The position numbers were made by a program, and so were the translations under genes. A stretch of 64,000 nt of DNA from an uncultured candidate division WWE3 bacterium. Lineage in GTDB: Bacteria > Patescibacteriota > WWE3 > UBA101185 > UBA10185. Shown in pieces: positions 13,892 through 63,808 of this stretch; the first letter of the stretch is position 1; every line of letters begins with the position of its first letter. The notes beneath the pieces were generated by a model that was given only the letters and a program-made list of their open reading frames with translations, did not search any database and was not told the DNA's origin. The stretch is from NCBI GenBank assembly GCA_938004185.1, contig CALKWN010000065.1, positions 633,943 through 697,942 on the forward strand, given 5' to 3'.

Positions 13892-15391
13892 ATTAGACCT
13901 TATACGAACCAAATCTCGCGATACTAAAGCCTCAAACTCGGGTACGAACTCAAAACTAGTGATTATTCGCTCTTTTTCCAGGAATGCTTTTGATATGAAA
14001 AAGCGTAAAAACTGCTTTCTTTGTTGCTTATTCATTGCGTCATAAAGGTTTCCGATATGTCTCAAGCCGTTGATTATTTTCTCTATTTCGGAGTCTTTTA
14101 GGTTAGTAGATGGCTTATCCAAGTCTTTTATCTGTGCCTCCACCTGTTTTAGCTCTTCTTTTAGAGGTTTATATCTTTCCTTGAGTCTATCTATGTCCAC
14201 TAACTCGTCACCAGAAAACATCTTGTCCTCAATAACTCTCATTTTCTTGTCTAAAGCGTCTTTTCTGATTTTTAATACCTTAATCTGTGCGGGAACACCC
14301 GAGCCCTGCTCACTTTTAACCTCGTATAAAACACCTCTAAGCTCAGCAAGAGCCTCCTCAGTAAATACTGTTCCATTAAAGAAGTCTGCAATCTTATCAT
14401 CAGCTGTTTCAAGTGGAACATAAGTCCTAGAACAGCTATGGCATCGATAATAATTGCCTTTATCGTGGTATTCTCCAAACATTTGCCTGCCACACTTCAA
14501 GCAATGGGCATATCCTGACAGGAGGGTTACATATTTTCTATCTCTATGAGCACCTTTATTCTTTTTCTCAAACATAAGCAATGATTTGGCATACCAATCA
14601 AAGGATATGATTGGTTCATGTGCCGCTTTTTCATATACTACCCCATCATATAGTAGCCCTCCAGAGTAAAGTATATTTTTTAGGATATTTGTGACTGTGT
14701 TTTTGTAAACTTTTCCACCGGACTCATTCCTAAAACCCCTTTCATGTAACATTTCTGCTATCCTATGGACGGAATAATTACCTGACAACCACAGCTCATA
14801 AGCCATTACAATAAAATGCTTCCTCTCGGGGTCTGGGTATATCGGGGAATCTTTTTTATAGGAGTTTAAGTAACCAATTGGGCTTTTTCCTGGTTTTAAC
14901 CCTCTCTGAGCCAGAGAAAGCATAATCCTCTTTGTTTTCTTGCCTGTCCTTCTAGATTCAAGTTGGTTTACAGCCGCAACAATCACATCTAAAAACTCAC
15001 CTTCATCTGTATCACCATAATACCCATCTAGTGGAATCAGTTTTATTTTTCTTTTTTTAAGAAAAGCTTTAATCGCTAAATGGTCAGAGACATTTCTGGC
15101 TAATCTACTAGAATCCTGTACTAGTACAATGTCTACGGACTCAGCATGCTCATCACAATAATCAAGTAGTTCTTCCATATCAGGTCTGTCTAAATCTCTC
15201 GCACTCTTTCCGGAATCTTCAAATGTTTTGACAATAGAAATGTTATTTTGCTTTACAAAGTTTTGAAAAAGCTCGTCTTGTACATTCAAACTATGCCCAG
15301 TAAGAGCCTGCCGTGTAGTAGAAACTCTTTTATAGCATATAGCTTTTAATATTGTTCCTGTCTTTGGTTTCTGTTCTTCTAATCCGTACAT
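13850..15391 (-). mobile_element. Large serine recombinase (integrase) gene; its 3' end overlaps tRNA-Asn
   Basis: 513 aa. N-terminal resolvase catalytic domain 'ICYKRVSTTRQALTGHSL...IVLVQDSSRLARN', recombinase domain, Cys-rich zinc ribbon 'CLKCGRQ...CHSC', C-terminal coiled coil. The last ~14 codons are encoded by the complement of the tRNA. Confidence 0.85.
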
Positions 15392-45984: not shown

Positions 45985-46370
45985 TGGTGGAGATGGGGGG
46001 AATCGAACCCCCGTCTTGAGAACTTTTCATACAGCGTCTACAAGCATATTCAAACTTTTCTTAAGTAAGGCGGGTGTTTGAAATACCCTTAAACCTTACT
46101 GCAGGCGAAGTTGTTCGGATTTTTCATCCCCGGCGTATTCGCATCGCCAATACAAACATGCCTCATCCCGGATTTATTAGACCCCGAAAACCCTCCCGGG
46201 CAAAGATATCGGAATCCGCAGCGTTAATAAATTAAGCTGCTACGGCGGCCATTGCTGGTACGCCTACAAATGCGTCTTTATCGGCATTTATTGTTTTGCT
46301 AAATTTGAGGGTTCAGCTCCCCTGCCTGCAACTGCATAAATTAGGACTCAATCAAATCCTGGGCATCCCC
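45985..46370 (-). ncRNA. ssrA: tmRNA (ssrA)
   Basis: Minus strand. 5' end GGGGATGCCCAGGATTTGATTGAG. tRNA-like 3' end GGGGG-TTCGATT-CCCCC-CATCTCC-A-CCA with a G3:U70 Ala identity pair. Internal tag-like reading frame ending ...GCC GCC GTA GCA GCT TAA (inferred tag ~ADKDAFVGVPAMAAVAA). smpB lies immediately downstream. Confidence 0.75.
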
Positions 46371-46441
46371 TTTTTAAAGTACGGGGCTATTTTACCATAT
46401 AAAAAGCGTATTTAAAACTGTGGTTAAAGGAAAAACGGACG

Positions 46442-46915
46442 CTATCGGGACATAATTTCTTTTGATTCACGCTCGAGATCGCGCTGGATTTGTCTGTCTT
46501 TTGCCACAACTTTCTTTTCCCATTCTTTCTTACCTTTTGCAACGGCAAATTCCAGTTTAATGTTTCCGTTTTTTAGCACCAGCGCCAATGGGACGGCAGT
46601 TTTTCCCTTCTCGGAAATGGCCCTTGAGACTTCAGCTATCTCATTTTTGTTCAGTAAAAGCGCTCTACTCCTCTTTTCGTCAGCTTCGGAAATGTCGCGT
46701 GACTGCTTGGAATACCTACCGATATATAAATTTTCGACAAAAAGCCGGCCGTCCTGTCCATTTATATAAGATCCTTCAAAACTCACTTTTCCTTCTCTTA
46801 TGGCTTTAACTTCGTAACCTCTCAAGACCAATCCCGCAGTGTAGGTTTCGAGAACCGAAAAGTTGTGCAGAGCCTTCTTATTTTTTGCTATTACATATAA
46901 TCCCATCAAACTCAT
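46442..46915 (-). CDS. smpB: SsrA-binding protein SmpB
   Basis: 'IAKNKKALHNFSVLETYTAGLVLRGYEVKAIREGKVSFEGSYI' is the canonical SmpB core. 157 aa. Confidence 0.9.
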   Translation of the reverse strand: MSLMGLYVIAKNKKALHNFSVLETYTAGLVLRGYEVKAIREGKVSFEGSYINGQDGRLFVENLYIGRYSKQSRDISEADEKRSRALLLNKNEIAEVSRAISEKGKTAVPLALVLKNGNIKLEFAVAKGKKEWEKKVVAKDRQIQRDLERESKEIMSR

Positions 46916-46950
46916 TTTATCAGGTTAATGATATAATTTAAGCGAAAGTT

Positions 46951-49900
46951 ATGAGACAAAATCGATTAGTAAAATGCGCTGTTTTTTCATTTTTTATGGT
47001 TGTTGCCGGTGCGTTTTTTGTGCCGGGCAGAGTTTTTGCTGAAGAGTATGTAGACCCCATGTCAATATTTGAACCCGGTACTACCTGTTTAAAACCCGAA
47101 GATCCGAGACTTGCAGTAATCTGCGGCGTTGTTAGAAGTGCGACACCAAGAGACGCGGATGTGTATGAAGGTACTGCAACTAATCCTAATCCCCCGCTTA
47201 AAGGGGTTTCGGTATATATCTACGAATGCTACCCGGATTCCCCGACTTGTAAAAAGAACGGGGCCCTTGCGAATTCTTTTTCATCAACATTTACGGACGA
47301 AAACGGCTATTACACAATAACGATGCGTAAGGTGGGAAACAATCTTGTTAGATATTTGGCTTTTGTATGCGGGGGTAAGCTTGGCGGGTTGTTTAAAGTA
47401 CCTTCGTATGCCAGTTTTAATTTGAACGTTCCGGTTAATTGCCCCGATGTTTCTAATTATTCTGCGCCGGCGGCTTCGTGGGATCCGGTGAATTACTCTA
47501 CCCTAAGCTGTGATATTACAAGAACTGACCCCGACAATTTGGATCTTGAACCTTCTTATGAGGGGAAATTCGGAACGGAGTATCAACCGGTAAACGAATA
47601 TAATTTTTGGCTGGAGATTGACGGGGCGGATGGGAGGTATAAGAAGTACTTAGATTGGTTAGGTCTGTACGATCTACTCAATAAACCAACAACTGTTCCG
47701 ACAAAAGGCGCCTTCTACCACGAAGATTGCTTTAGAGTTTATAACGGAAATCTGGACTACGAAAATTTGTGTTATTTCCCAAAAGAAGAAAATTTGGACG
47801 GCTATGAAAAAAGGTTATACAACGACCCCGCTCTCACAACAGCAAACTTTCTCCCCAATATCCCAATAAAAAATTCGCTACTTTTTTTCAAAGATCTGAC
47901 TGCTAGACAAGATGTAGTAAACTACGCCCAGAACCCAACAGCTACCGCCCAATTACTACACACAATATTTAGTAACTGTAAGGGAAATGTGTATTTAAGA
48001 AATAGCGGAGGCAGTATAAAAGATGTACTCCCCGAATGCGATGATCTAAAAGCATGTAATTCCGGTATTTCAGAGACCTCTCTTAACTACAGAAACAGGC
48101 AATACAGCGCCGGGCCCGCGAAGAACCTGGCAAATCCGGCTATCCTACAAGATGAAACAGCATACACACTGGACGATAGTATAAAAAATACTTACGTATG
48201 CCAAAGAATGGGCACTCAATATAAAATTGGGGACATACAACCACCCTGGAGTTACTGCAAAGTCGGTGAATCCAACTGCCCTTATAAACTAGACAAATTA
48301 TACTGGAACCCGGAATTTGCTTACTTCTTCGGTGAAAAAGGAACTTCAACTAAGGTCGGGTATGGTTTTGAGGGAAGCAATGATAGTTTTTGGCCACCTG
48401 CCTCCGGAACTAACGAAGTTGTATGGAAACAAAACGAAGAGCGTGCTGGGGTCCCTATAAAAGGCGGCACCTATTACTCTGACAACAATTATGGGTATTC
48501 ACGAAACAATGGACTTACTCCGATGATGGCTGGGATAGCAACAACAGAATTGAGCGGATCGGCCTATAACTTAACTTATGTTTTGCAAAGGCCTTTCGAG
48601 ACTAACGAGGATAAATTGATATACGAACAGGGTATTGTAAAGATTGAGGATGCCGGTTCAAACCTAGCGTCCTTTTGCGAAAATTCAAATGTTAACGACC
48701 ACTATAATGTGTTTCCACCCAACGTTGCTGATGCAGCTTATGTAAATACTGATTTTAAAGGTAATGCTGATCATTATTTTGAGTTTGCAGATTCTACAAA
48801 AAATAAGGGGGAACTTACCCCCACTTCAACCATATTCTATACAACAGCGTCAAAAAACCGCGAGATAGCATTAAAATCACTGGATATCGGCATTTTAGAT
48901 AGAGTTGGAAGAGATGTTTTTGACAGCTATCTAACAGCCACATACGGTGGCGGAAAATATGGTGTTTGGGACTTAATTGCAGACCTCATATTCGATCTTT
49001 TTTCTCTAGGAGGCCACGAACACAAATCTTATTTCGACAGAGATGAAGACCATTATAATCTGTCTGTCGCATCGGCTACTTTAAGAGACGATTTAAAATC
49101 TACCTTCTCACTAAGCGAAGAAAACTTTGAACAATTCTTCTTTCTCCCCGACATATCTGACGGAACATTGTTTTACGATGAATGGGGAAAGTGGTTCGAC
49201 GACTGTTATCAAAGAAATGAGGTAGACGTCGGAAAAAAATGCTACAACGATTTCGGCGTCACTAACGTACCAACCGCAATAACAAGAACCTGCCGCGTAG
49301 AACTATGTGAACTTGTAACCCTGAGCAAAAGCATCACATGCGAAGTCGTGAACGGTGTTGTTGTAAGAAATGATGGCGGTGAAAAAATGTCCACTGAACC
49401 GTGTGCTACAACAGGCATAACAGCCGACGCATCGCTTCTTAAAAACGCCATGTACTACTGCGCCACCGAAAAAAAGGATTGTTACGACGGATCTTGGGAT
49501 AAAGATTGCCTGGATTTACGTCTTGATGATGTATTAGAGTGTCCCGATATATCAGAAGATGTTTATTTTCCTGGAGATTACGTAACAGAACCTATTTATA
49601 TGGGCGGTATGTGGCTAACGGTAAATAAAGGCATTTGTTCCGTAAAAACGGGCTCTCCTGTATATTGGTATGATTTCCCTATAGATGCCTACGATAAATC
49701 TTGTGAGGTAACCGTAAGCGCCTCCAAAACAAAACCCGGCTGCAATATGCAGGACGCGGGACCTTATCTCTGCGCCGGAAGCACGCACAAAGACGCCAAC
49801 TTCAAAGCCACTCAAGAAACATTCAGAATAAACACTACCGACGTTCCGCTCGATAGCACAAAAACGGTAAACAACGAGATATGGAAAAAAATGGCTCACC

Positions 49901-50820
49901 CATTCAGCAGTAAAACCTATGACTCCCTGGCATTTCAATCCGCAAACACTTCGGTAAGTTTAGATACAAATACTAATGTAGCAAGAAATAAAAATAAGGA
50001 CACCGTCGCTTTCGGCGGCGCCTCCCCCGAATATAAAATGATATCAGCCCACCCCCTATACACCAACTACTACGACGGAGGGGAGGAGATTTTCTATCAC
50101 TGCATAAACAGCGATGGTTTAAGTAATTACTCAGGAGACTGGAACTGCCCGTTACTGGAAGTGCCCGATCCCGAAATAATAGATTTATTCGACGATAGCG
50201 TAACAAATAATCTAAAGTCGGCCTGTCAGTTAAATACTTCTGCCAGCTGCATTAGCAGTTACGATACTTCAGGTGTAATGGGGGCATTCAACCCGACATT
50301 TATAAGAGTGCTGGACATGGCAGCCAGTGAGTACGATGTGCCTGCGGCATTAATACTCGCCTATCTTGCTGTAATACATAAACCGGAAATGGCTTTGTAT
50401 CAAAATCTGTTTTCTCTTTCCGGAGATCAGGCGTTATTTGATGCAAGTGCTCCGTGGTATGGAAGGGTGCCCAGATGTGATGACACAAATATCGCTGCTA
50501 TCGGACCGTATGACTGGATTGCGCAGTGGTTCCCCAAAGAAGAGATAGGTCCGGCTTTGGACGAACTTTCTGACGGTAGAAGTGAAACCGCTTCGAGATG
50601 TAATTTCTTGGATGCTACCTATGCTGCCGCGTATTCATTAAGATCTGTGGGCACTACATGTGAGAGTTATACGTGGGACATTGCGAAAATTTCACTACTC
50701 AACCTAACACTAGGATTCTACAGAACCGAAGATTACAACCCTGACAGCAACCCGGATACCACAACAACAGGAGACTACGTTGTACAAAGAGGGTCTGTGG
50801 TTTGGAATAGCTGTAGATAA
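46951..50820 (+). CDS. Giant secreted Cys-rich protein (1289 aa), unknown function
   Basis: Signal peptide 'MRQNRLVKCAVFSFFMVVAGAFFVPGRVFA'. More than 40 Cys. No catalytic motif seen. Confidence 0.5.
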   Translation: MRQNRLVKCAVFSFFMVVAGAFFVPGRVFAEEYVDPMSIFEPGTTCLKPEDPRLAVICGVVRSATPRDADVYEGTATNPNPPLKGVSVYIYECYPDSPTCKKNGALANSFSSTFTDENGYYTITMRKVGNNLVRYLAFVCGGKLGGLFKVPSYASFNLNVPVNCPDVSNYSAPAASWDPVNYSTLSCDITRTDPDNLDLEPSYEGKFGTEYQPVNEYNFWLEIDGADGRYKKYLDWLGLYDLLNKPTTVPTKGAFYHEDCFRVYNGNLDYENLCYFPKEENLDGYEKRLYNDPALTTANFLPNIPIKNSLLFFKDLTARQDVVNYAQNPTATAQLLHTIFSNCKGNVYLRNSGGSIKDVLPECDDLKACNSGISETSLNYRNRQYSAGPAKNLANPAILQDETAYTLDDSIKNTYVCQRMGTQYKIGDIQPPWSYCKVGESNCPYKLDKLYWNPEFAYFFGEKGTSTKVGYGFEGSNDSFWPPASGTNEVVWKQNEERAGVPIKGGTYYSDNNYGYSRNNGLTPMMAGIATTELSGSAYNLTYVLQRPFETNEDKLIYEQGIVKIEDAGSNLASFCENSNVNDHYNVFPPNVADAAYVNTDFKGNADHYFEFADSTKNKGELTPTSTIFYTTASKNREIALKSLDIGILDRVGRDVFDSYLTATYGGGKYGVWDLIADLIFDLFSLGGHEHKSYFDRDEDHYNLSVASATLRDDLKSTFSLSEENFEQFFFLPDISDGTLFYDEWGKWFDDCYQRNEVDVGKKCYNDFGVTNVPTAITRTCRVELCELVTLSKSITCEVVNGVVVRNDGGEKMSTEPCATTGITADASLLKNAMYYCATEKKDCYDGSWDKDCLDLRLDDVLECPDISEDVYFPGDYVTEPIYMGGMWLTVNKGICSVKTGSPVYWYDFPIDAYDKSCEVTVSASKTKPGCNMQDAGPYLCAGSTHKDANFKATQETFRINTTDVPLDSTKTVNNEIWKKMAHPFSSKTYDSLAFQSANTSVSLDTNTNVARNKNKDTVAFGGASPEYKMISAHPLYTNYYDGGEEIFYHCINSDGLSNYSGDWNCPLLEVPDPEIIDLFDDSVTNNLKSACQLNTSASCISSYDTSGVMGAFNPTFIRVLDMAASEYDVPAALILAYLAVIHKPEMALYQNLFSLSGDQALFDASAPWYGRVPRCDDTNIAAIGPYDWIAQWFPKEEIGPALDELSDGRSETASRCNFLDATYAAAYSLRSVGTTCESYTWDIAKISLLNLTLGFYRTEDYNPDSNPDTTTTGDYVVQRGSVVWNSCR

Positions 50821-50896
50821 CACGGGGTCAAACACAAACTTCCAAGGATACAAACAGTGTGGAAATGTATCGGCAAATTATATCAATGCGGTAATC

Positions 50897-52234
50897 CTAT
50901 CTCTTCTTCTGACCGCCGCCCATAAACTCATCGATTCTTTTTTCCATACCGATACCCAAGCCAAAGCAGTAAAGAACGATAAATACCGGAAGTGCTGAGC
51001 CGAATAACGCCCCTGCGCCGCCTGTTTCAGTAGCATATGCTGTAGCAACCGAGTAAGCGATAATTGTTCCCAGAGGCAATATTATTCCCATCGCAAATAA
51101 TGTAAGGACATATTTACCCATTCTCAAAAACCAGGCTTTAAGTTTATCGTCATTACCCGGAACTGCTCCGAGAGCAAATTCTAAAGGAGCGGTTAAGATC
51201 GAGAATATTATCTTCATGTAAATTACAATTGCTTTGAAGTTAAATATTATTCCTGCGATAAGGAAAATTATGATTATTACCAATATAGCGAGAAGGAAAA
51301 TAGGACCCGTTCCGGCTAACACCAAAAACGGGATCATTAGCGTCCATATCCTTAAAGCAGTGCTAACACTTGTCGGATCAGCACTAGAACCATCTACAGT
51401 ATTAAATACATCTGTAAATAGTGTTCCCGCTAAAGCCCAATTACTCTTAAACAACGTCCAGCCTAAACTTCCTAAAGTCGCTCCGATCGGATAGCTAAAT
51501 GTTATTAATACAATAGCGATGACTATTCTGGGCAAAGCATATTGAACGCTTACAACCAATTGCGAATTTATCTTTCTTCTCAAAATAATAATTATTCCGG
51601 TATAAAGCATTATTATTGCCATTAAAGCGTAGGCAAGATTTCTGAAAACTTTCCATGTGTCTAAAATTGCATTAATAAGGGAATGGCCGTAATCAACGGG
51701 AGCAGCAAAAGTTTTATTTACAACCGGTATTCTTGACATTGTGTCGTTGAAGTAAACAGCTAAGTTTGCCGGTAAAGGCTCACGGGTTGTAAACTCACCT
51801 GTTAAATAAGCCGCTCCAAGTAAAGTACCTGAAGCGCGACTTTGAGAATGTCGAACTAACCAGTTATTACTACTTGCGACAGTAGCATTATCGCCAATAA
51901 TTTGAGCGCACACATCGTCAGATGTTCCGGAACAGCTGTAAAAATTGTCTGTAGCATCATTCGATGGCAAATTGACCTTGCTGGAAATATAAGTTCCGCA
52001 GTTCACGGTCTCGGTAAGACCGTAACCTGTGGTGGTACTATATGCCGAAGTCGCAACAGATGTAACAAAATCTTTAGTAGTTAAAGGTATTCCCAAAACA
52101 TCGCTTAAAAGGTTTTTATCAAACATCCTCTTCTCTACCTCACACATATCGGCAGCAAAAGATTTTGAAGGAATTAAAAATAAAACAAGAGCAAAAACCG
52201 ATAGAGAAAATATAGTTTTGATTGTCTTTTTCAT
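50897..52234 (-). CDS. VirB6/TrbL-like polytopic membrane protein with N-terminal extracellular domain
   Basis: Signal peptide, ~200-aa Cys-containing ectodomain, then 6-7 TM helices. The arrangement and the neighbouring pilin genes suggest a T4SS-type channel protein. Confidence 0.45.
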   Translation of the reverse strand: MKKTIKTIFSLSVFALVLFLIPSKSFAADMCEVEKRMFDKNLLSDVLGIPLTTKDFVTSVATSAYSTTTGYGLTETVNCGTYISSKVNLPSNDATDNFYSCSGTSDDVCAQIIGDNATVASSNNWLVRHSQSRASGTLLGAAYLTGEFTTREPLPANLAVYFNDTMSRIPVVNKTFAAPVDYGHSLINAILDTWKVFRNLAYALMAIIMLYTGIIIILRRKINSQLVVSVQYALPRIVIAIVLITFSYPIGATLGSLGWTLFKSNWALAGTLFTDVFNTVDGSSADPTSVSTALRIWTLMIPFLVLAGTGPIFLLAILVIIIIFLIAGIIFNFKAIVIYMKIIFSILTAPLEFALGAVPGNDDKLKAWFLRMGKYVLTLFAMGIILPLGTIIAYSVATAYATETGGAGALFGSALPVFIVLYCFGLGIGMEKRIDEFMGGGQKKR

Positions 52235-52291
52235 GTAAGCCTTTAAATAAATGATTTCCTTTTTGGCACCTAAATTATAGAATACTATTAT

Positions 52292-55200
52292 ATGGTAGAC
52301 AATCCCCTATTTCCAGGGTACAAGCCAAGACGAGAAGGTGATTCAACAAACCCGCTTTATCCGGGATATTCGGAAGGTCAGAGACCTTACAGACCGCCGA
52401 GAGGAACTCCCCTAGGAAGTTTTGAATATAATGCCGATTATTGGCTAAAACAAATAGACCAAATGTCTTTTGATTTCGGAAACATTCCTAAATGGTTTTG
52501 GGAAAGATATGAAAATGACTTTAGAGATAATCTTAAAGCTGTATATAGCCCCGAAGCCGTTCCTATTGAACAGCTAGATGACTACGATCAGGATGTTTTT
52601 CCGGGTGTATCTAACGTAAGTCTTACTCTAGACCCCATCGAATGGAAAGACCCCAAAAAAGTGTTAGAATCCACCGCCAAAAGCTGGATAAGGGCGGGCA
52701 CCGGTCTGCGCTTTAAAAAAGAGGGCTGGGGATTGGAAGCTTGGCCGGTCGACCTTACAGACTATGACACTAATGTTAGAACTTCGATGTGGAAGGTTGC
52801 TTTCGGACTGCAAGATCCGGCGTCTGATCTGGGAAATGCCGGAGCCGAGGCTGTTGTATCAGCAACCAGAGCCAGAGCAGGAGAAGACACCGGAGGAGAT
52901 AGAATTTTTAGATTCACTGAAGCCGATTATATCGTGGGTCCTTTAAAAGGCTACGAATCTATGGCAAAAAAAGCCGTGGAAGCTCAGAGATATATAAAGG
53001 GTGGGCCTAAACGAGACACAAAACATGATGATTTCGCCGGAGCGATGGTCTCCTCAATAAACGAAGAGTTGAACGGAAAGTACGAATTTGTCTTAGACAA
53101 GGTCTCCGGATACAAGCCTGTATACAAAAAGGATCCTACAACCAACAAAATAACAACGGAAATTGAAACAGACGATAAAGGCTACGAAAAGTATCGAAAT
53201 CCACAGACCGAAAAAGAAGCGTACAAAAAAGCAGTTCTTGTTGATGACGGTAAGGGCCAAGGTGGGAAAGTTGAAAAAGAAATATTTGTAGAATACAGAA
53301 CAAGAACGGGTGTTTTTGAGGAACTTTTTGAAAACAAAGATCAAGCAGAAGCTTACAGAAACGCCGCATTAATATTCAAAGAAAAGGAGGATCTGGCCTC
53401 GGATATGGCCCATCCTACTATATCGGGAGCTATATCGGGCCCGTTTGGTATTACATCTGCATTAATGCAGAGAAAGCTGGGGAACAAAAACAAAGAAGCT
53501 ACGATGGAAGGTATAGACGTACCCGGGGGCACTAAAACACGCCTGGAAACAAGAATCGATCTACTAAAAGGAAATATAAACGACAGAGTAAAACCGGGTG
53601 GAAAAATTGACAAGATCGTTAAAAACATAAGAGATATAGATCCTGTTTCTGCGGATGCTGTGCAAAAATATGCAGATCAATATAAAAGCTACCTAACTAA
53701 AGTTAAAGAAGCCTTAGATGCCTATGATGGAAACGACACCGCTCTCCTAAACAAACTAAGCAACATCACTGTAAAAGGAAAGTCTCTCACCGGAGGAACT
53801 CTAGGTAACCCCAGCATCCACCGAGAATTCCTAAGGCAAATCGAAAGCGACATACTAATACCCGGAAAAATCACCAGAGTAGATAAAAAATTCCAGATAG
53901 GAACTTACCTAAAAGATCTTGAACAACGGGCGATGTCCGGAACCAACAAAGCCGGTGAAAAAATTGAACAAATATTCGAGAGAGAAAACCAAGAATACAA
54001 AGGCTTTTTTGCAAATCAGGCCCGAATCGTAGGAGCAAGATTAGAAGTAGATAGAGGCTCTTACGCCATCGAGGAATTCTATGATGCTGTAACACAGGGT
54101 AAGTTCTTAGAAAGATACGTATGGAATAGACTTTCGAAAAAAATGATCGGTTACACTCCCGGAGAACTGGTAAAAAAGGGTCTGGGTAGTGTGGGATACT
54201 TCGGTCTAAACATTGATGACGACGCTATTTCAGACAAACTGAAAAATAATGGTCTGTTCAACAGCATCTTCCGACATAAATTTCAGGTACAAATAGATAA
54301 TAGCGAGGGCGTCTTTGATAAATTTAAAGGTGTCAGTGTAATAAAAACCAAGTTCCTAGGAAGCAAGGATCTGGCAGCTGTAGGAACACTCGGCGGAATC
54401 TTAAGCAATGTAAAACATCTTGAAAACGACGATCTCCTTAAACTAATAACGGGCGATGCAAGACTTGTTGATAGCAAAGGTATAAACAAAGATATTGCGT
54501 GGGTCTTGGGTGCTAGTAAAGGAAAAATCGGAGATAACCAAATAGAAAATTTTTGGGACAAAGTACCCGGATTTTGGAAAAAAGACGAACACCATCTAAG
54601 AAATGTCCAAGAACAAATAGATAACTTTAGAAACTGGCTTATCCTAAACGGCAAAGAGCTCGGAATAACAATAACGGATTTTAAAAACATGAGTGACCCG
54701 GACAGAAAAAAGGTACTCGCACTATTCAACGCACTAAACAAAGAAAACCAATTCTACGGATCACTAAAAATCACAAAAGAATTCTCCGGCGCACTTCAAC
54801 GCATAGGAGTCGGTCTAAATAAACTTCAAGACAAAATTTTCGGCTTCGCCCTATTCCAAAAAACTATAAAGCCTCTTCTGCAAATGAAAAATATTGTTGC
54901 AGAAAAAATATCCGAACTTGTCTCAAAATTTTTAACAGAAATTGCAAAAAAAGGAATTCACGGTTTAACGGGAGGGGCTTCGGTTGTCCTTGACTATTTA
55001 CTAGAAAAAGTTTTGAAACCGGCAATCAGATTTGTAGTAAGAAAAGTCGTAGAATTCGGCCAAAACTTTGTAGGTGCTATCGCGCAGGGAAACATAAGTA
55101 AAGCCATGGAGCAGGCTGACAAAGAGCTGGTGGCGGTCACAAAATTTGCGATGTACGTGATTGGTGTTCCGTTAATAGTTATTTACATTCTTGTTTACGG

Positions 55201-56257
55201 GTTGTTCGGCACTGTTTTGAGTTCTATTTCTCCGGTCGATCCTACAAAAGACAATAGCGGCTATGGGGGCTACCCTGCATACGCGGGATTTCCGCAAGGC
55301 GAAAACAATCTAATAAAAATTGAAAAGGACGTGATAGTAAATGGTGTTACAAATCCGACGGAAAGCATTCCGAATGACCAACTGCCTGTTACAGTAACTT
55401 ACGTTCTAAGGATAACCACAAAAGTGGATCTGGCCATGCCTGTAAATTACACGGATATTGTGAGCCGTATATATAGCGACAACGGCAACACAGCGAGTGC
55501 CACAATAAAAACCTGGACAGACAGCAACCCAGACAGCTATGTAGCCGGCCAAACTACTGAAATTACACTCGACCTTGGAACAATAAATTATAAAGACTCA
55601 TTAATAAAAAATGAATTTACAGTTACTACTCCGGCGTACGAATCTTACACGGAAGATACTGTAAGATTTGTTAGATATTTCAGGATAGGACAACCACCTT
55701 CTAACATTGATTGTTTCGAAATTACCGGACCGAGTCTAACTACTGCCCTCGAAAATGTAACTTTGGATGCTTTGCTCGAGATTGAGCCTAAAACAGGAAT
55801 GTTTCTTAGTAAGTTATGCTCCGGACATACGTGGGAAATTGAATACAACAACAGCATAGACTACTGCGGTTGGGCAGGTACACCCGGCAAGGTTGTGTTT
55901 GGAAGTGGTTGCTCTGCCGCGTATTATTTAAAAGAGGGTGTAATGCCTTACCTGCTTGCACACGAACTGGCTCATAAATACAGGGGTCTTTACAATACCG
56001 CTGAGGCCATTGATGCCAGCATCGCGGGGTTGGATGGGAGAACTCTTCCGACATACGACTTAAATTGTGGGGCCACAGATAACTCACTTTCGGAGGATTT
56101 CTCTGAGACTGTGGGTAATACTGTCAGAATAAACGTGTTCGGGCACTGTGCTTCTTTGATTGTTAGTATGTACCCCGATGCTGCAACTAGATACGAAGAC
56201 TTCTGGACCGATTTTTCCGAGCATCGTAATTATGTACAGGAGGTTACATTTAACTAA
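52292..56257 (+). CDS. Giant protein (1321 aa) with TM helices near residue ~950 and C-terminal HExxH-containing domain
   Basis: N-terminal short repeats 'NPLFPGYKPRREG / NPLYPGYSEGQRP'. TM pair 'KFAMYVIGVPLIVIYILVYGLFGTV'. C-terminal 'LLAHELAHKYRG' is a candidate zincin motif. Confidence 0.45.
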   Translation: MVDNPLFPGYKPRREGDSTNPLYPGYSEGQRPYRPPRGTPLGSFEYNADYWLKQIDQMSFDFGNIPKWFWERYENDFRDNLKAVYSPEAVPIEQLDDYDQDVFPGVSNVSLTLDPIEWKDPKKVLESTAKSWIRAGTGLRFKKEGWGLEAWPVDLTDYDTNVRTSMWKVAFGLQDPASDLGNAGAEAVVSATRARAGEDTGGDRIFRFTEADYIVGPLKGYESMAKKAVEAQRYIKGGPKRDTKHDDFAGAMVSSINEELNGKYEFVLDKVSGYKPVYKKDPTTNKITTEIETDDKGYEKYRNPQTEKEAYKKAVLVDDGKGQGGKVEKEIFVEYRTRTGVFEELFENKDQAEAYRNAALIFKEKEDLASDMAHPTISGAISGPFGITSALMQRKLGNKNKEATMEGIDVPGGTKTRLETRIDLLKGNINDRVKPGGKIDKIVKNIRDIDPVSADAVQKYADQYKSYLTKVKEALDAYDGNDTALLNKLSNITVKGKSLTGGTLGNPSIHREFLRQIESDILIPGKITRVDKKFQIGTYLKDLEQRAMSGTNKAGEKIEQIFERENQEYKGFFANQARIVGARLEVDRGSYAIEEFYDAVTQGKFLERYVWNRLSKKMIGYTPGELVKKGLGSVGYFGLNIDDDAISDKLKNNGLFNSIFRHKFQVQIDNSEGVFDKFKGVSVIKTKFLGSKDLAAVGTLGGILSNVKHLENDDLLKLITGDARLVDSKGINKDIAWVLGASKGKIGDNQIENFWDKVPGFWKKDEHHLRNVQEQIDNFRNWLILNGKELGITITDFKNMSDPDRKKVLALFNALNKENQFYGSLKITKEFSGALQRIGVGLNKLQDKIFGFALFQKTIKPLLQMKNIVAEKISELVSKFLTEIAKKGIHGLTGGASVVLDYLLEKVLKPAIRFVVRKVVEFGQNFVGAIAQGNISKAMEQADKELVAVTKFAMYVIGVPLIVIYILVYGLFGTVLSSISPVDPTKDNSGYGGYPAYAGFPQGENNLIKIEKDVIVNGVTNPTESIPNDQLPVTVTYVLRITTKVDLAMPVNYTDIVSRIYSDNGNTASATIKTWTDSNPDSYVAGQTTEITLDLGTINYKDSLIKNEFTVTTPAYESYTEDTVRFVRYFRIGQPPSNIDCFEITGPSLTTALENVTLDALLEIEPKTGMFLSKLCSGHTWEIEYNNSIDYCGWAGTPGKVVFGSGCSAAYYLKEGVMPYLLAHELAHKYRGLYNTAEAIDASIAGLDGRTLPTYDLNCGATDNSLSEDFSETVGNTVRINVFGHCASLIVSMYPDAATRYEDFWTDFSEHRNYVQEVTFN

Positions 56258-56267
56258 AATCTAAACT

Positions 56268-56879
56268 ATGAAAATTGCAAACTTAAACAACATAAAAAAA
56301 TACTGGCCGTTGTTGGTAGCCATTATGATTTTTCTATTTATTTACCAAGCTGCTGTTAATAGACAAAAAGGCTCTCCTACAGAAGAAACTGCGCAGTACA
56401 CGTACATATCAAAACACTCTCAGTTAGCAGAGCACTTTTTGAATGAAGCCGTAGACTACAATCTCTCTGACATAGAAAATCAAAACCCTAATTTAAAAGA
56501 AACTGAAAGGACAACAAACCTATCGGGTTATATTTCTACTACCTACAGAGACGAAAAAGAAACCCCCGTAAGAATATTTTCCGATAGAAACGGAAAGGTT
56601 GTTGCTACAATGAGACCGGTCATCTCCGATTTTGAAAGAAACGTCACGCTACTGAAGAATCGCCTGGATCTGAGCGACGAACCCTCTGCCATAATGTACC
56701 CGTCCAAAACAAGCATCGCGGTTGTACACGTTTACCTGAAAGACGGAATAGCAATATTTTTTGAGGAAGAGTTCGGCAACGTAGAGTATATTATTACTTT
56801 CGGTGAAATGAACTTGAACGAGTTTAAAGCGGTTTTTCAACCTGAGTTGCAGGATGAGAGGAATCCTTTGGCGTACTGA
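56268..56879 (+). CDS. Membrane-anchored protein, unknown function
   Basis: 203 aa with N-terminal TM helix. Confidence 0.35.
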   Translation: MKIANLNNIKKYWPLLVAIMIFLFIYQAAVNRQKGSPTEETAQYTYISKHSQLAEHFLNEAVDYNLSDIENQNPNLKETERTTNLSGYISTTYRDEKETPVRIFSDRNGKVVATMRPVISDFERNVTLLKNRLDLSDEPSAIMYPSKTSIAVVHVYLKDGIAIFFEEEFGNVEYIITFGEMNLNEFKAVFQPELQDERNPLAY

Positions 56880-56911
56880 CAGAGTGTTTAAATAGGCGGG
56901 ACTACGCAGTT

Positions 56912-57355
56912 CTAAGGCTTGGGGGGATTTACTATATCACCAACAAGCTCTTCAATTCCGCCAAAAATATTTCCGAAAATGTCATCAAACCCTATCTTTA
57001 TTCCGAACCAACCTGCAGCTATAGTAAATAATCCGAAAAAAGCCACGACTACCAGAGCACCAAACAAGGCGTAAGTCCAAGTACTTTTTGCCGAATCTAG
57101 GGCACGCGGATCTCCTGTTGCTGTAGAGGCCTTCCACGCACCATATCCGAGAACGGCTACAAAAGCTATACCTACAAGAAAAACCGTCCAATTCATTATC
57201 CTTATAAGAATGGTTTTCATATCACCCAACGAGGGGTTATCCATATCAATATCCGATGCGTAGGATACTACCGAAAAAACTATTAATATAATAAAAGGCG
57301 ATAAAAAGCCTGAAATTTTCTTGAATTTTTGCGTAATTTTAAAAAATTTGTTCAT
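56912..57355 (-). CDS. TrbC/VirB2-like pilin-domain protein (paralog 1)
   Basis: Two TM helices flanking 'TATGDPRALDSAKSTWTYALFGA'. Shares a (S/T)xGD..A...A....A..G core with the three downstream paralogs. Confidence 0.45.
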   Translation of the reverse strand: MNKFFKITQKFKKISGFLSPFIILIVFSVVSYASDIDMDNPSLGDMKTILIRIMNWTVFLVGIAFVAVLGYGAWKASTATGDPRALDSAKSTWTYALFGALVVVAFFGLFTIAAGWFGIKIGFDDIFGNIFGGIEELVGDIVNPPKP

Positions 57356-57361
57356 AAGCTA

Positions 57362-57697
57362 TTAATAAACGTCCTTAACATCCAGCATTGTGAACAGGAC
57401 TGCCTTCACTCCCCAAGCTATAGCACTGACAAGCATGGCTACAAGCGACCAAAATAACGCCCTTTGGGCTCTTTGGACCGCTTTGGGATCACCCCCACTC
57501 GTTAAATATAGAACAAAGGAATAAGCAAAACCAATGGTTGATAAACCCGCGCCTATTATTAAAAACACATTAGCAAAAACTATGGCCAATTCTGCTAAAC
57601 CTTTACCAGGCATAACTCCGGTAGCCACATCCGTACCTCCCACAACATCTTTTAAATAATCAAACGGATTCAATTTCGATTCTCCATGTAAAAACAA
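57362..57697 (-). CDS. TrbC/VirB2-like pilin-domain protein (paralog 2)
   Basis: 'TSGGDPKAVQRAQRALFWSLVAMLVSAIAWG' lies between two hydrophobic helices. 111 aa. Confidence 0.45.
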   Translation of the reverse strand: MFLHGESKLNPFDYLKDVVGGTDVATGVMPGKGLAELAIVFANVFLIIGAGLSTIGFAYSFVLYLTSGGDPKAVQRAQRALFWSLVAMLVSAIAWGVKAVLFTMLDVKDVY

Positions 57698-57754
57698 CAG
57701 GGGCCCGGGCCTACCGGGCCCACTTAACTACTAACTAAAGCGGTGGCCCCAAGG

Positions 57755-58087
57755 TTAATAATCCTCAGCGATATTTTGTCCGCCAAGAAGTGTAAGGATT
57801 ATTGTCCTCAAACCGTAAACGATAAGTAAGCCAACACCACCGATAACTGCATAAGTAAGAGTTTTCTGTGCAGAGTCAACAGCGTTCTTATCACCCTGTG
57901 AAGTTACATATTTAACAAATCCAAGAGCTAACATTACAACAACTACTGCAACACCTACAACAATGATCACGTTTGTGATGACAGTTACTAACTCGTTAAC
58001 GCTAGTCACTGCAATTCCTGACAACGGGTCAGAACTCACAGTTTGAGTTGCGTACACTTTACTCTCAAGAATAGATAATAAGTTCAT
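57755..58087 (-). CDS. TrbC/VirB2-like pilin-domain protein (paralog 3)
   Basis: 'TSQGDKNAVDSAQKTLTYAVIGGVGLLIVYG' lies between two hydrophobic helices. 110 aa. Confidence 0.5.
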   Translation of the reverse strand: MNLLSILESKVYATQTVSSDPLSGIAVTSVNELVTVITNVIIVVGVAVVVVMLALGFVKYVTSQGDKNAVDSAQKTLTYAVIGGVGLLIVYGLRTIILTLLGGQNIAEDY

Positions 58088-58127
58088 AATTAATATTTAG
58101 CTTCTACACCTCCCTCGAAAAAACCTT

Positions 58128-59213
58128 CTACAATCCTGAGTCAACCCCCAGGATACTGTTAATTATAGCTCGAAGTATAAATACTGACAACAGAATGAAG
58201 AGAGAACCAAGTATTGCCGCCGTAAACTGCTCTTTGCCTTCTTTTGCTCTGCCCGGGTCTCCCTCGCTAACCATAAGTAGATACCCGGAGTAAATTATGC
58301 CCATTATCCCGACAAATATTCCTGCGTAAAAGAGTATTTTGAAAACGGGGGATAGTAATCCTGCTATGTCATTTATTATGGGACCGTCGTATTGCATTAT
58401 TTCGAAGATTGATTCTGGCGAGCTACCTGCTACACAATAAGTAGTGCTGATATCGCACCCACCCTCAATACAGTAAAGGGACCCTGTTGCGGTAACACAA
58501 CAGTGATCGCCCAAAGTACCGCAATTTGCATCGGTTGGGTCGTCCCCACAAACTGTACCATAACAGTCAAGGCCTCCGAAACAAGTGTCTGTGCTAGTAC
58601 CACAACACCTCTCGCCAATATCATCACAACACGCCTGATAACCATCTAAATGCATACTAACACGGTTGTATGTGCACCAAGTCTCATCACCCTCATGCTC
58701 TGGTTGGCACACACCTCCATCGCAAATCATTGCCCCATACAAGGAACTGTCTTCGCAAACATCTCCTGGACAACAAGTCTCGCCAGGATCGTTACAATCA
58801 TTGGTGTCCTCAGTACAAACCTTACCGTAGAGTGTGGTGGTACAAACAAGGGGTGCTACACACTGGGTATTACCGCAACAAGAATCTCCGACACTATCAC
58901 AATCCTCACATACCCAAGTACTGGTATTACACATAAGAGTGCCGTCGCAGGTGCAACCACTTTTATATTGACTGGGAGTAGCATCAGAACACACCGACGT
59001 GGTTGTTCCCGATGGCGGCGTTGGTATCACAACATAACATGACTCCCCATCCCCACCACACGAAGCACCGGAGGAACATGTGGTAGCAAAGCTTTTTTGC
59101 CCCAAAACGATACCAAACAGGATTATCAAACTAAACACAAAATAACGGTGCAGAGACACTGAGTGTAATTTAAAAAGCAATGCTTTAATCTTTAAATAAA
59201 CTGGGTTTGCCAT
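58128..59213 (-). CDS. Secreted Cys-rich protein fused to a C-terminal TrbC/VirB2-like pilin domain
   Basis: Signal/TM helix. ~250-aa domain with about 50 Cys in (C..C..G.C) spacing. C-terminal 'SEGDPGRAKEGKEQFTAAILGS' flanked by TM helices is homologous to the three small pilin paralogs. Confidence 0.45.
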   Translation of the reverse strand: MANPVYLKIKALLFKLHSVSLHRYFVFSLIILFGIVLGQKSFATTCSSGASCGGDGESCYVVIPTPPSGTTTSVCSDATPSQYKSGCTCDGTLMCNTSTWVCEDCDSVGDSCCGNTQCVAPLVCTTTLYGKVCTEDTNDCNDPGETCCPGDVCEDSSLYGAMICDGGVCQPEHEGDETWCTYNRVSMHLDGYQACCDDIGERCCGTSTDTCFGGLDCYGTVCGDDPTDANCGTLGDHCCVTATGSLYCIEGGCDISTTYCVAGSSPESIFEIMQYDGPIINDIAGLLSPVFKILFYAGIFVGIMGIIYSGYLLMVSEGDPGRAKEGKEQFTAAILGSLFILLSVFILRAIINSILGVDSGL

Positions 59214-59289
59214 GGGTACACTTAAAATCTACCAGCTGGTTTAAAAAAAATCCATAGGGAAACAAGATACTGATATAATAAACATAGTT

Positions 59290-61125
59290 ATGTTTTATCC
59301 GAAACCTGCACCCATAAAACACACGATAAAAGCAGCTAGAATACTAGTTGTGGGGTTACTCGTACTTCAAATTGGATTTATTAATATTCCCACACTCGCC
59401 GACGACCCCTGCAAAAACATCCAAGACCTAGACGACAGAGCCGAATGCTACGAAAAACAAATCGATAAAAAAGAAGACGAATACGAATCCACGAGCAGCA
59501 AGCTCGAACAAATCCGAAACACAAAAAATCAAATCAGCCAAAAAATATCCGACCTCTTAGGACAAATAAATGTGACCCAAGCTGAAATAAACGAACTGCA
59601 AGCGGAAATAACAAAAGTAAAAACCCAGCTCGATGAAATAAATTCAATACTCGCAGACCGCAAAGGAACCCTTTCCGAAAAAATCAATCTAAGAAATAAA
59701 GTTCTTCGTACTTACTCGAAAAGACACTTACTAAATGACATCGAAACCTTTCTCATTTCAAAAAATTCTGCGGGATTAAGCGGGTTTCAATTCGCAACAA
59801 TGTCTCAGGCATTTAACACTGCCGTTACCGACGAAACCGTAAAAATAATCTCCGGCTTAAACTCCGAAATAGAAAGTTATGAAAAAGACAAAGCAGAGGG
59901 GGAAAAATTAAAAGGCGAACTCGAAGATACACAAAAAGAATTTCTAGCCGCAAAAGCTGAGTTGGATGCCAGAAAAAACACCGCACAAAGTGAGTTCAAC
60001 GAAGCAGCAGAAAAAGAAACAGGCTATCAAAATAAACTCTCCAACTTGCAAAAGGAAATTTCAGAGCTTTCTTCAAAACAACAAAGTATTTTAAAACAAA
60101 AGTACGGAGATGAGTACGGATCTGTAGGTGATTACGAGCCGCCGGAAGCCAAAACTCCCGATCCTCCGTTTAAACCCGCCTTTGCAGCTTTTAGTTACGG
60201 CGCCTACACACACTACAACGGAATGAGTCAGTACGGCGCGAAAGCCCGAGCCGAATCAGGTCAGGATTACAAAGAAATTCTCAAATTCTACTACAAAGTG
60301 GGGGTCAAAGAAGAAGATGATTTTCCGGATAAAATAAAGGTTGATGGTTATGGTGAACTTGACTTTCAATATTACCTTTACGGCCTTGCTGAAATGCCTA
60401 CAAACTGGCCTTTAGACGCATTAAAAGCCCAAGCTATAGCTGGCCGAACATATGCGTACAGATCAAATAAACCTATCTGCACTACGCAAGCGTGCCAAGT
60501 ATTCAGTAAAAGCAAAGCAGACAAAGTAAAAAACGGAGAATACCCTAATTGGAAAAAGGCGGTTGACGATACGAAAGATAAAATATTAGATAACCCGACA
60601 ACATCCCAATACTCATCCACAACAGGAGGATATATAAACAACGTCGGCTGGGATACTTACGGAACGTGGCCGGGCAAAGCTTACGAGAAAAAAGGAGAAT
60701 CTCCGTGGTTTTACAAAGCCTGGTACACAAAAAGCTATAACAGTACTGACACCTGTGGCCATAACCATCCCTGGCTAACCGAAAAAGAAATGGCCGACAT
60801 ACTAAATGCCTACATAGTCTGGGATAGAGGGACAGACAGCGAAAGGGACCATATTTCACCCGTAACCACAAGTTGCTGGGGCGGTGACCCTTATTCCTTG
60901 GATGAGATGGCTGAAAAAGCCGAAAAATACGGCGATAAATATACAAAAGTAACATCCGTCGACGTGGAAATCAGCAACGGGGGTTACACTTCAAAAGTAA
61001 TTCTCGGAACCAACAAAGGCACCGTAACCTTAAGCGGAGAAACATTTAAAACCGTGTTCAATCTTCGAGCCCCGTCTTACATAGCAATAAGAAGCCGACT
61101 TTTCGATCTTGAAAAACGGGATTAA
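59290..61125 (+). CDS. Coiled-coil protein with C-terminal SpoIID/LytB-like domain (cell-wall hydrolase/amidase enhancer-like)
   Basis: N-terminal TM helix, then long coiled coil. C-terminal 'LDALKAQAIAGRTYAYRS...CTTQACQVF' resembles the SpoIID/LytB domain signature. Confidence 0.5.
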   Translation: MFYPKPAPIKHTIKAARILVVGLLVLQIGFINIPTLADDPCKNIQDLDDRAECYEKQIDKKEDEYESTSSKLEQIRNTKNQISQKISDLLGQINVTQAEINELQAEITKVKTQLDEINSILADRKGTLSEKINLRNKVLRTYSKRHLLNDIETFLISKNSAGLSGFQFATMSQAFNTAVTDETVKIISGLNSEIESYEKDKAEGEKLKGELEDTQKEFLAAKAELDARKNTAQSEFNEAAEKETGYQNKLSNLQKEISELSSKQQSILKQKYGDEYGSVGDYEPPEAKTPDPPFKPAFAAFSYGAYTHYNGMSQYGAKARAESGQDYKEILKFYYKVGVKEEDDFPDKIKVDGYGELDFQYYLYGLAEMPTNWPLDALKAQAIAGRTYAYRSNKPICTTQACQVFSKSKADKVKNGEYPNWKKAVDDTKDKILDNPTTSQYSSTTGGYINNVGWDTYGTWPGKAYEKKGESPWFYKAWYTKSYNSTDTCGHNHPWLTEKEMADILNAYIVWDRGTDSERDHISPVTTSCWGGDPYSLDEMAEKAEKYGDKYTKVTSVDVEISNGGYTSKVILGTNKGTVTLSGETFKTVFNLRAPSYIAIRSRLFDLEKRD

Positions 61126-61152
61126 GCACCGACGTAATGATATAATTACGAC

Positions 61153-61713
61153 ATGCTCGGATCTCTGCAGGAAAACCCTAAACACACCTCATACGAAGGG
61201 CGCGATGAAGACGAAAGGATAAAGTACGTAATCAGAAAATCCACACTTACTGCCGTCCCTTGGATAATCGCCTCGATAATGCTTTTTATAATTCCGATGT
61301 TTGTAGGTTATGTTATTTCCCTATTTCCCGAAAATACGCCTGTAATATTTGACAGCGGGTCAGTGCTCATAATTACCGTTCTTTGGTACCTTTTTTCTTT
61401 CGGTTTTTTCTTCCAAAACCTGCTGAGCTGGTTTTTTAATGTTCTGGTAATTACAAATAAAAAAATTGTTGATGTAGATTTTGTAGGATTTCTTTACAAA
61501 AATATTTCCGAAACCACCCTCGATAAAGTCGAAGACGTTACTTCAAATGTTTCGGGGCCGCTGGGAGTTACTTTTAACATCGGTGCCCTTTACATACAAA
61601 CAGCAGCAGAAAAAAGGGAGTTTGAGTTTCATGGAATAGAAGACCCTTCAAAAGTGAGAGATGTTTTAGCGGACCTTGTAGAAAATATAAAAAAACATGC
61701 GCACCACAACTGA
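61153..61713 (+). CDS. Membrane protein with bacterial PH (bPH_2/YdbT-like) domain
   Basis: Two TM helices followed by a ~100-aa domain, 'KKIVDVDFVGFLYKNISETTLDKVEDVTSNVSGPLGVTFNIGALYIQTA', consistent with bPH_2 topology. Confidence 0.4.
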   Translation: MLGSLQENPKHTSYEGRDEDERIKYVIRKSTLTAVPWIIASIMLFIIPMFVGYVISLFPENTPVIFDSGSVLIITVLWYLFSFGFFFQNLLSWFFNVLVITNKKIVDVDFVGFLYKNISETTLDKVEDVTSNVSGPLGVTFNIGALYIQTAAEKREFEFHGIEDPSKVRDVLADLVENIKKHAHHN

Positions 61714-61954
61714 TAATTTGGAAAATTTAATAGCTCCGGAAATGGTAACCACAATAACTGATTTTGTTGTGCTAATCATGGTGGGAGGATACGCTTTGTT
61801 TTCATTCCTTTTAATGAGACAGATTAAGCTTATGAACAGAAGTTTAGCTACACCTATGGCGTCGCTGTACACTTTTATAGGGCGTCTTCACTTCGCTGTT
61901 TCATTGATATTGCTTTTAGCCGCATTGATAAATTTGTCCTAAGAAAGGGCCGGT

Positions 61955-63808
61955 ATGAAAAAGAAATTAACTGCTAAAACACAAGAGATAAATCCCCCGC
62001 TAAAACAGTTCTCCACTTCTTTTTCAAAGTGTCTCACTATAGAACCTGAATCGAAAGATCTTCAGTTAAAAAAGGGTGTTATTTACGCGGTCTATGAAAT
62101 ATCGGGAAATGCAAATTTTGACACCTCACTTGCTGACAGAGCTTTAAGAGACATGCTCCATAACAGTTATTTCCAATCGGAAAACATATCGCCCATTCAA
62201 TCTTTGGAAAAAGCTATTGTCGAGTCAAAAGAAAAAATTTTACAGCTTTCAAACGACGCGTTGAGCGCCGAACCCGCAAACGTACAACTTAATATTTCTG
62301 CCGGCGTCCTATGGGGAAATGTTTTTTACGCCGTAACAGTAGGAGAATCTGATAGCTACCTCATGCGTGAGGGAGCGGTTAAACCCATTGAATCCGTAAG
62401 CGAAGGTACTTTCGCGGCAGCTTCAGGTATTGTTCGAGATGAAGATGTTGTCATTCTCTGTACAAGACAATTCAGCAAAAACTACCCTCCACAAAAACTT
62501 CTCTCAACCAGAATAGGTGAGCAGGATTTAAAAGAAAATGAAGCCTGTATTCTTTTAAAATTTATCACCGACACATCTTTTGCCGAAGAAGAAACAGTTG
62601 ACTTCGGTTTGGAAAAACAGGCAAGCCGTACGAGAAAAAGAGAAAAAGTTGAAAAAATTATTTTAGGCGCAAGAAAAGGTCTGGAAAAGACCTCACCGAT
62701 TTTTAATAAGATAAAATGTCTTTTTGCAAACAAAAAACGACCGTCGGCTCCCCAACAGGACATTTCAGGATTAAACAGAGTGGCAAGGGGAAAAATACAA
62801 GCGGAAACAAAAAACTACGATGGAAAAACTTTTCAAAAAATAGCCGGAAAAATCGTGTATATACTTCCTATACTTGGGGTGGTTTTAGCAGTTACGCTGG
62901 CGATTCAATTAGCTGGAAAAAAAGAATCGACGGAGCAATCGCCTGAGCAAAATAATTCCGACCAGCTTGCGGTAGAACAAACAGAAAGTGAACCGATTCA
63001 AGTTGATATGGCCGAAATAACAAAAGACGACGAAGAATTTAAAGTAAAAAGAGTAAGCCCCGAAGTTTTCTACGATATAAAAATTACCGATCAAAGTGCC
63101 GAACCCTCGGAACTGGTAATAATTTCCGACTTTCTTATTGCCGCGGATTCTTCAACGGGAACAATATTCAAATCAGACGCCGACACCGCAAAATTCGTTG
63201 CAGAATCCACAAAATATCCGGGCCTTAAATCATTAATAAATCAAAACGGCCGTCTTGGATTCCTGCAAAACGGGCAGTACATTTCTTACTCTCTAACTGA
63301 TACTACTGACGCAGAATCTTTTGAGTTGGCGGGCGTTGAAATAATTAATACTTACTCCGATTATCTCTACGGAATAACCGGAGATAAACTAAACAGATAC
63401 ACAAAATCAGGCGATGTTTACGAAGAAACGTTGTGGGGGCAAAGTGCGGAATTTCAAAACTCAAAATCCTTGACCGTGGCGTATAGCATATATTTAATCA
63501 CTGCTAACGGAGAACTCACAAAACACACCAGCGGAAATAAAAATTCATTTTCGATAAAAGGACTAAACAAAGATCTTACCGGAGCAACAAAAGTAATTAC
63601 CGATATAGATTTTGACAACATATACGTTCTCGATCCCGTAAATCAGCGTATTGTTGTAATTGATACGGACGGAAACCTTGTAACACAGTACACTCACGAA
63701 CCTCAAACCTCGTGGGATTCCATTAGGGATATGAGTATAAGTTCCGATGAAAGCAAAATTTACCTTTTGAACGGCAGCAAGGTTTTACTTATAAACAACG
63801 AGATTTAA
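61955..63808 (+). CDS. Membrane protein with N-terminal PP2C-like (possibly degenerate) domain and large C-terminal extracytoplasmic domain
   Basis: 'VTVGESDSYLMREG' resembles the PP2C 'NvGDSRaYL.R.G' motif. Single TM 'IVYILPILGVVLAVTLAIQLAG'. The C-terminal ~300 aa are of unknown function. Confidence 0.35.
   Translation: MKKKLTAKTQEINPPLKQFSTSFSKCLTIEPESKDLQLKKGVIYAVYEISGNANFDTSLADRALRDMLHNSYFQSENISPIQSLEKAIVESKEKILQLSNDALSAEPANVQLNISAGVLWGNVFYAVTVGESDSYLMREGAVKPIESVSEGTFAAASGIVRDEDVVILCTRQFSKNYPPQKLLSTRIGEQDLKENEACILLKFITDTSFAEEETVDFGLEKQASRTRKREKVEKIILGARKGLEKTSPIFNKIKCLFANKKRPSAPQQDISGLNRVARGKIQAETKNYDGKTFQKIAGKIVYILPILGVVLAVTLAIQLAGKKESTEQSPEQNNSDQLAVEQTESEPIQVDMAEITKDDEEFKVKRVSPEVFYDIKITDQSAEPSELVIISDFLIAADSSTGTIFKSDADTAKFVAESTKYPGLKSLINQNGRLGFLQNGQYISYSLTDTTDAESFELAGVEIINTYSDYLYGITGDKLNRYTKSGDVYEETLWGQSAEFQNSKSLTVAYSIYLITANGELTKHTSGNKNSFSIKGLNKDLTGATKVITDIDFDNIYVLDPVNQRIVVIDTDGNLVTQYTHEPQTSWDSIRDMSISSDESKIYLLNGSKVLLINNEI

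Follow-up and report, generated by a model that had tools for sequence, protein, structure and literature searches.

The genes at positions 46951–61125 of the window, by which we mean the whole 64,000-nucleotide stretch of DNA analysed here, raise the question of whether they build part of a T4SS or a cell-envelope structure of another kind. A first-pass annotation had described them as a module for a T4SS-type pilus and the cell surface, incomplete here and belonging to a small-genome episymbiont. The source genome is that of an ultra-small member of the Patescibacteria, and homologues of the locus carry the name candidate division WWE3. Loci of this kind have already been published (PMC10633639, PMC12102498). 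Patescibacteria T4SS loci are reported to contain arrays of VirB2-like pilin genes (441 arrays of 2–11 genes with a mean identity of 25%), and the T4SS genes of Southlakia epibionticum, pilins included, to be essential (PMC12102498; PMC10633639; PMC12857230). These systems are related to the Gram-positive MPF-FATA class and are thought to be used on other cells. We consider it likely that the region analysed here encodes, on the chromosome of a WWE3 bacterium, the pilus and envelope half of such a Patescibacteria-type T4SS, a reading supported by a pilin model, a VirB6 fold and the position of VirB4 in relatives. All open reading frames of the first-pass annotation were recovered at their coordinates, and gene D, which it lacked, was added (Table 1).

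Table 1. Features of the locus, with positions in the window
Feature	Position	Strand	Description
A	46951..50820	+	1289-aa secreted Cys-rich giant
B	50897..52234	-	445-aa VirB6-like polytopic membrane protein; N-terminal signal peptide, all-helical ectodomain
C	52292..56257	+	1321-aa bitopic giant: ~940-aa N-terminal region, one TM, Ig-like stalk, C-terminal HExxH domain
C, TM	aa 945-982, nt 55124..55237	+	single long hydrophobic segment (hydropathy scan)
C, Ig-like beta-sandwich stalk	~aa 1008-1132, nt 55313..55687	+	AF2 model of aa 981-1321; stalk pLDDT 70-93
C, zincin-like C-terminal domain	aa 1131-1321, nt 55682..56254	+	HELAH at aa 1224-1228 (nt 55961-55975)
D	56268..56879	+	203-aa bitopic membrane protein, N-terminal TM
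E1	56912..57355	-	147-aa T4SS pilin-like protein, signal peptide, C-terminal tail; PF18895 E 1.2e-4, 22.5 bits
E2	57362..57697	-	T4SS pilin-like, 111 aa from TTG; PF18895 E 2.1e-3, 18.5 bits; NF045849 E 7e-4
Terminator-like hairpin	57701..57721	-	directly after E3; 8-bp all-GC stem, 5-nt loop, T-rich tail (pattern scan)
E3	57755..58087	-	110-aa T4SS pilin-like protein; PF18895 E 1.2e-4; NF045849 E 8e-5
Promoter-like site TTGTCA-17-TATAAT	58162..58190	-	11/12; inside E4 3' end, upstream of E3 (consensus scan)
E4	58128..59213	-	361-aa extended pilin with signal peptide; PF18895 E 1.4e-5, 25.5 bits
E4, ectodomain	aa 45-282, nt 58368-59081	-	34 Cys
E4, C-terminal pilin domain	aa 283-361, nt 58131-58367	-	
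F	59290..61125	+	611-aa membrane-anchored coiled-coil protein, SpoIID/LytB domain ~aa 300-611
G, H, I	61153..63808	+	conserved neighbours downstream of F: G (186 aa, TM), H (81 aa, DUF5657), I (617 aa, one TM)

The four adjacent genes E1–E4 had been grouped by a common two-helix core and a conserved motif, and both are real: in 32 aligned pilins, taken from the window locus and seven other loci, the core and the motif around the invariant glycine of '(S/T)xGD(P/K)' are kept. All four proteins match Pfam PF18895 (T4SS_pilin) at E values of 1.4e-5 to 2.1e-3, with scores of 18.5–25.5 that each lie under the gathering score of 26.6. The same model is matched at E ≤ 0.01 by 31 of the 32 aligned family members (best 4.6e-10), and a match of four adjacent genes to one family is far beyond chance. 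The pilin identity thus holds through PF18895, while the expected TrbC/VIRB2 model PF04956 was matched by none of E1–E4 and a profile search with the family matched no solved pilin. Each of E1–E4 has its own orthologue in the related locus L007 at 40–47% identity (44%, one-to-one, for E1), whereas the paralogues share only 18–30%; judged by sequence, the four belong to the T4SS_pilin family and diverged from one another long ago. E3 is the best conserved (47% to L007, 74% to L009) and a candidate for the major pilin. The true start of E2 probably lies further downstream, with gene callers predicting 103 or 88 aa.

E4, which is identical to P0052, a protein with a precomputed PF18895 assignment of its own, carries its cysteines at residues 46–260 in spacings of 1–16 residues, including four 'G[DE]xCC' repeats; the total given in Table 1 replaces an earlier estimate of about 50. 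Among 10 orthologues, 13 Cys columns are invariant and 11 nearly so, with variable loops between them, and orthologues range from 120 to 620 aa and from 0 to 58 Cys. E4 is also not the one-off that its description as a very unusual pilin adduct implied: most of its best 150 relatives measure 200–650 aa and carry the pilin domain at their very C-terminal end, and the extended form of pilin is a recurrent architecture.

The protein B shows the signal-peptide-like N-terminus, the several TM segments and the Cys-containing ectodomain described for it before; it has five Cys, and the N-terminal helical ectodomain, with conserved Cys, measures 160 aa. Neither B nor 38 relatives matched a TrbL/VirB6 Pfam model, TrbL PF04610 included. 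VirB6, and not an unrelated transporter, was the best structural match in two programs, at a weak Foldseek E value of 0.04 and TM-scores of 0.31–0.46. B is VirB6-like by predicted fold and gene context only.

This context is provided by related WWE3 loci, about 20 of which have the gene order I-H-G-F-E4-E3-E2-E1-D-C-B-A in common. In at least six relatives (L028, L030, L033, L041, L042 and L057) B is directly followed by PrgI, a TrsD-like gene and VirB4, and in four more (L005, L043, L044 and L047) these three genes lie within 8 kb of the block. For L041 and L033, Pfam confirmed both PrgI (35–46 bits against a cut-off of 27) and the VirB4-type ATPase (P-loop_TraG, 94 bits). Since the VirB6-like gene adjoins PrgI/VirB3, TrsD-like and VirB4 genes in relatives, we read the locus as the pilus and envelope half of a Patescibacteria-type T4SS. 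As noted before, the window itself holds no VirB4, and a search of the flanks, which had been advised, extended this result: VirB4, T4CP, PrgI and TrsD are all absent from the window and from 10 kb on each side (~84 kb). This absence counts because the VirB4 proteins of the relatives are 60–78% identical to one another and thus findable by tblastn. Counted from the pilin/VirB6 block, any ATPase genes lie more than 13 kb away to one side and more than 57 kb away to the other.

The lack of an ATPase within ~84 kb, together with pilin matches under the Pfam cut-off, would also be expected of a stand-alone envelope module unrelated to T4SS, in which E1–E4 are ordinary small membrane proteins and F and C remodel the wall during the cell's own growth and division. 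SpoIID-type enzymes and M23/CHAP peptidases do serve ordinary wall metabolism, and housekeeping genes surround the locus, smpB, tmRNA and tRNA synthetase genes among them. This explanation is nevertheless improbable given that the F-E-C-B block is contiguous with, or close to, PrgI, TrsD-like and VirB4 genes in the ten relatives above, that B finds its best structural match in VirB6 and that the T4SS pilin model covers nearly the whole family. We regard it as equally improbable that the locus is a decaying, non-working remnant of a T4SS that lost its ATPase operon, as could be suggested by the giant A standing where some relatives carry PrgI-TrsD-VirB4 after B. About 20 species-level genomes share the ATPase-less arrangement with intact open reading frames at 32–69% protein identity. 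In a pair of strains, dN/dS is far below 1 in every gene, B and E1 are without amino-acid change although dS is ~0.1, and the dN of 0–0.004 for B and E1–E4 indicates that these genes are maintained. Moreover, in a published survey only 1135 of 1948 VirB4-containing assemblies had a pilin gene close to virB4 (PMC12102498).

Still less probable is that the genes encode DNA-transferring conjugation machinery carried by an integrated mobile element (ICE). This would agree with the phylogenetic kinship to Gram-positive conjugation machinery described in the survey (PMC12102498), with the weak matches of E2 and E3 to NF045849, a pilin-like family of mycoplasma ICEs, and with a serine recombinase gene in the window (13850–15391). 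However, this gene is 33 kb away, no relaxase or integrase adjoins the locus, its GC content matches the flanking DNA, and distant WWE3 genomes have it in the same chromosomal position beside smpB; relaxases are, according to the same survey, missing from most Patescibacteria T4SS (PMC12102498). Assembly of the pilin-like proteins by the ATPases of a type IV pilus or type II secretion machine instead of VirB4 would suit the type IV pilus systems encoded in WWE3 genomes (PMC3812714) and the absence of VirB4 nearby, but is just as doubtful, as E1–E4 possess neither a class III (prepilin) leader nor the hydrophobic helix at the N-terminus that type IV pilins have, show instead the charged-loop, two-helix hairpin by which the T4SS_pilin family is defined, and adjoin a VirB6-like gene and, in relatives, VirB4.

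Among the envelope proteins encoded beside the pilins, C has the late TM region previously noted, as a single long hydrophobic segment, and the C-terminal HELAH motif; its ~940-aa N-terminal region is inferred to be cytoplasmic. The modelled stalk matches ester-bond repeat domains of Gram-positive adhesins in Foldseek (8f9l, 4mkm; E ~1e-6, TM ~0.57). The zincin-like character of C stands in part: HExxH lies in a predicted helix and is kept in 13 of 27 orthologues, but beyond it the model is poor and does not confirm a zincin fold. While the N-terminal part of C forms one family over 27 loci, its final 170 aa sort into six clusters with no relation to one another, and at the position of the HExxH domain orthologues carry CHAP, Peptidase_C39_2+CHAP or Peptidase_M23 domains (up to 3.4e-21). 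A role as host-attachment factor, as suggested for both giants, is implausible for C, with ~940 aa on the cytoplasmic side and an ectodomain that combines the Ig-like stalk with an enzyme domain, CHAP/M23/C39-like in orthologues.

The neighbouring D has no Pfam match and no similarity to known immunity families. By inspection and Pfam it occurs with four ectodomain types, and in each of the 23 loci where both genes are present its type matches the C-terminal cluster of C, a co-variation that goes back to about four or five evolutionary events. In BLAST clustering, the CHAP-linked and PEGA types come out as separate and the other two as linked. Across lineages, the membrane-anchored giant C exchanges its C-terminal enzyme domain together with gene D. 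Between the two strains, the zincin-like domain is a divergence hot spot (dS 0.96 and dN 0.10, against a flank dS of 0.02–0.2), and D has the second-highest protein divergence (dN 0.032).

F is, by its domain matches, a true SpoIID/LytB protein, as had been proposed: SpoIID PF08486 (61.5 bits, cut-off 23) and TIGR02669 SpoIID_LytB (96.2 bits, cut-off 83.3) both exceed their thresholds. It has an N-terminal TM anchor and a coiled coil of ~240 aa, is divergently adjoined by an E4-type pilin gene in ~30 related loci, and is a candidate for the lytic transglycosylase of the system. The secreted Cys-rich giant A was likewise borne out, with one N-terminal hydrophobic segment and 39 Cys, 18 of them invariant among 15 orthologues; it matched nothing in Pfam, NCBIfam or PDB sequences. 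The order F-G-H-I is kept in most WWE3 loci; H matches PF18901 (E 1.5e-14), searches assigned no family to G and I, and membership of all three in the module is uncertain.

Strong hairpins with differing stem sequences occupy the position after E3 in ~17 of 22 orthologous loci; the hairpin in the window has an energy z-score of -1.27, which is not significant by shuffling. The promoter-like site upstream of E3 is the best consensus match in 46300–62000, and the numbers of promoter and terminator matches in this region are at chance level.

Taken as a working model, a VirB4 ATPase encoded elsewhere in the genome would pull the pilins from the membrane and polymerise them on a VirB6 platform. 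E3, with its own promoter-like site and conserved terminator-like hairpin, may be the major subunit and E1 and E2 minor ones, and E4 might display its disulfide-rich, fast-varying ectodomain on the filament's outer surface, where it would bind targets, most likely from a place at the tip. F would cleave glycan strands and the peptidase-like domain of C peptides, opening the peptidoglycan of the cell itself or of a host, with D regulating or neutralising the enzyme domain of C and A acting as a secreted partner. The literature searched yielded no report of an observed pilus built from these pilins and, in its accessible parts, none of the Cys-rich pilin, the swappable wall-cutting domain with matching partner gene or the separation from the motor ATPase.

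Compared with the Patescibacteria T4SS described for Southlakia epibionticum (SEML1_0006-0019, Wang et al. 2023, PMC10633639) and in the survey of Quinonero-Coronel et al. 2025 (PMC12102498), the locus shares a monoderm-type, divergent VirB2-like pilin array (PF18895), a VirB6-like protein, PrgI/VirB3, TrsD-like and VirB4 genes in its relatives, wall hydrolases nearby, and a chromosomal location with no adjacent relaxase. It differs in its WWE3 lineage, which the survey text does not name, in the distance of the pilin/VirB6 block from ATPase genes and in a VirB6 detectable by fold alone. It also differs in the Cys-rich ectodomain on the first pilin and in having a SpoIID protein, a swappable-enzyme giant and its co-varying partner fixed in one block, features not found in the searched passages of either paper. 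From Gram-negative VirB/Trw systems (Agrobacterium VirB2/VirB6; R388 TrwL/TrwI, PDB 7o3v) it is set apart by the lack of sequence-level TrbC/VirB2 and TrbL/VirB6 matches, by the absence of VirB5 or VirB7-10 candidates in the locus and by the Cys-bearing ectodomain of B. Gram-positive conjugative MPF-FATA systems (pCF10 Prg, pIP501 Tra, ICEBs1) share the monoderm envelope and, with relatives of the locus, a PrgI-family VirB3 and a VirB4 of the same class. Their VirB1-like hydrolases PrgK, TraG and CwlT are, like C orthologues, membrane-anchored with CHAP/M23/NlpC-type peptidoglycan hydrolase domains outside the cell. In contrast, MPF-FATA systems are described as using adhesins in place of VirB2 pilins (PMC12102498, PMC12857230), the region of C before its TM has no known counterpart, the HExxH-type domain of C is not a recognised wall hydrolase, and glycan cleavage would fall to a separate SpoIID protein and not to an SLT domain.

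In Bacillus, SpoIID cleaves glycan strands after these have been stripped by a peptidase or amidase. F resembles it as a SpoIID/LytB protein with an N-terminal TM anchor, encoded beside a membrane-anchored peptidase-type protein, but has a coiled coil, no sporulation context and a partner other than SpoIIP; the F–C pairing is suggested by gene linkage only. Finally, polymorphic toxin-immunity cassettes and T4SS killing effectors with immunity proteins (Xanthomonas X-Tfe/X-Tfi) invite comparison with C and D, for which toxin and immunity roles are putative. D is unlike known immunity families, and C is predicted to stay in the producer's membrane and not to be secreted, with peptidoglycan hydrolases as the enzyme types of its orthologues. 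The likeness lies in an exchangeable enzyme domain at the C-terminus of an otherwise conserved body, in a small downstream gene that changes type along with this domain, and in the enzyme domain of C and D being the fastest-diverging segments between strains.

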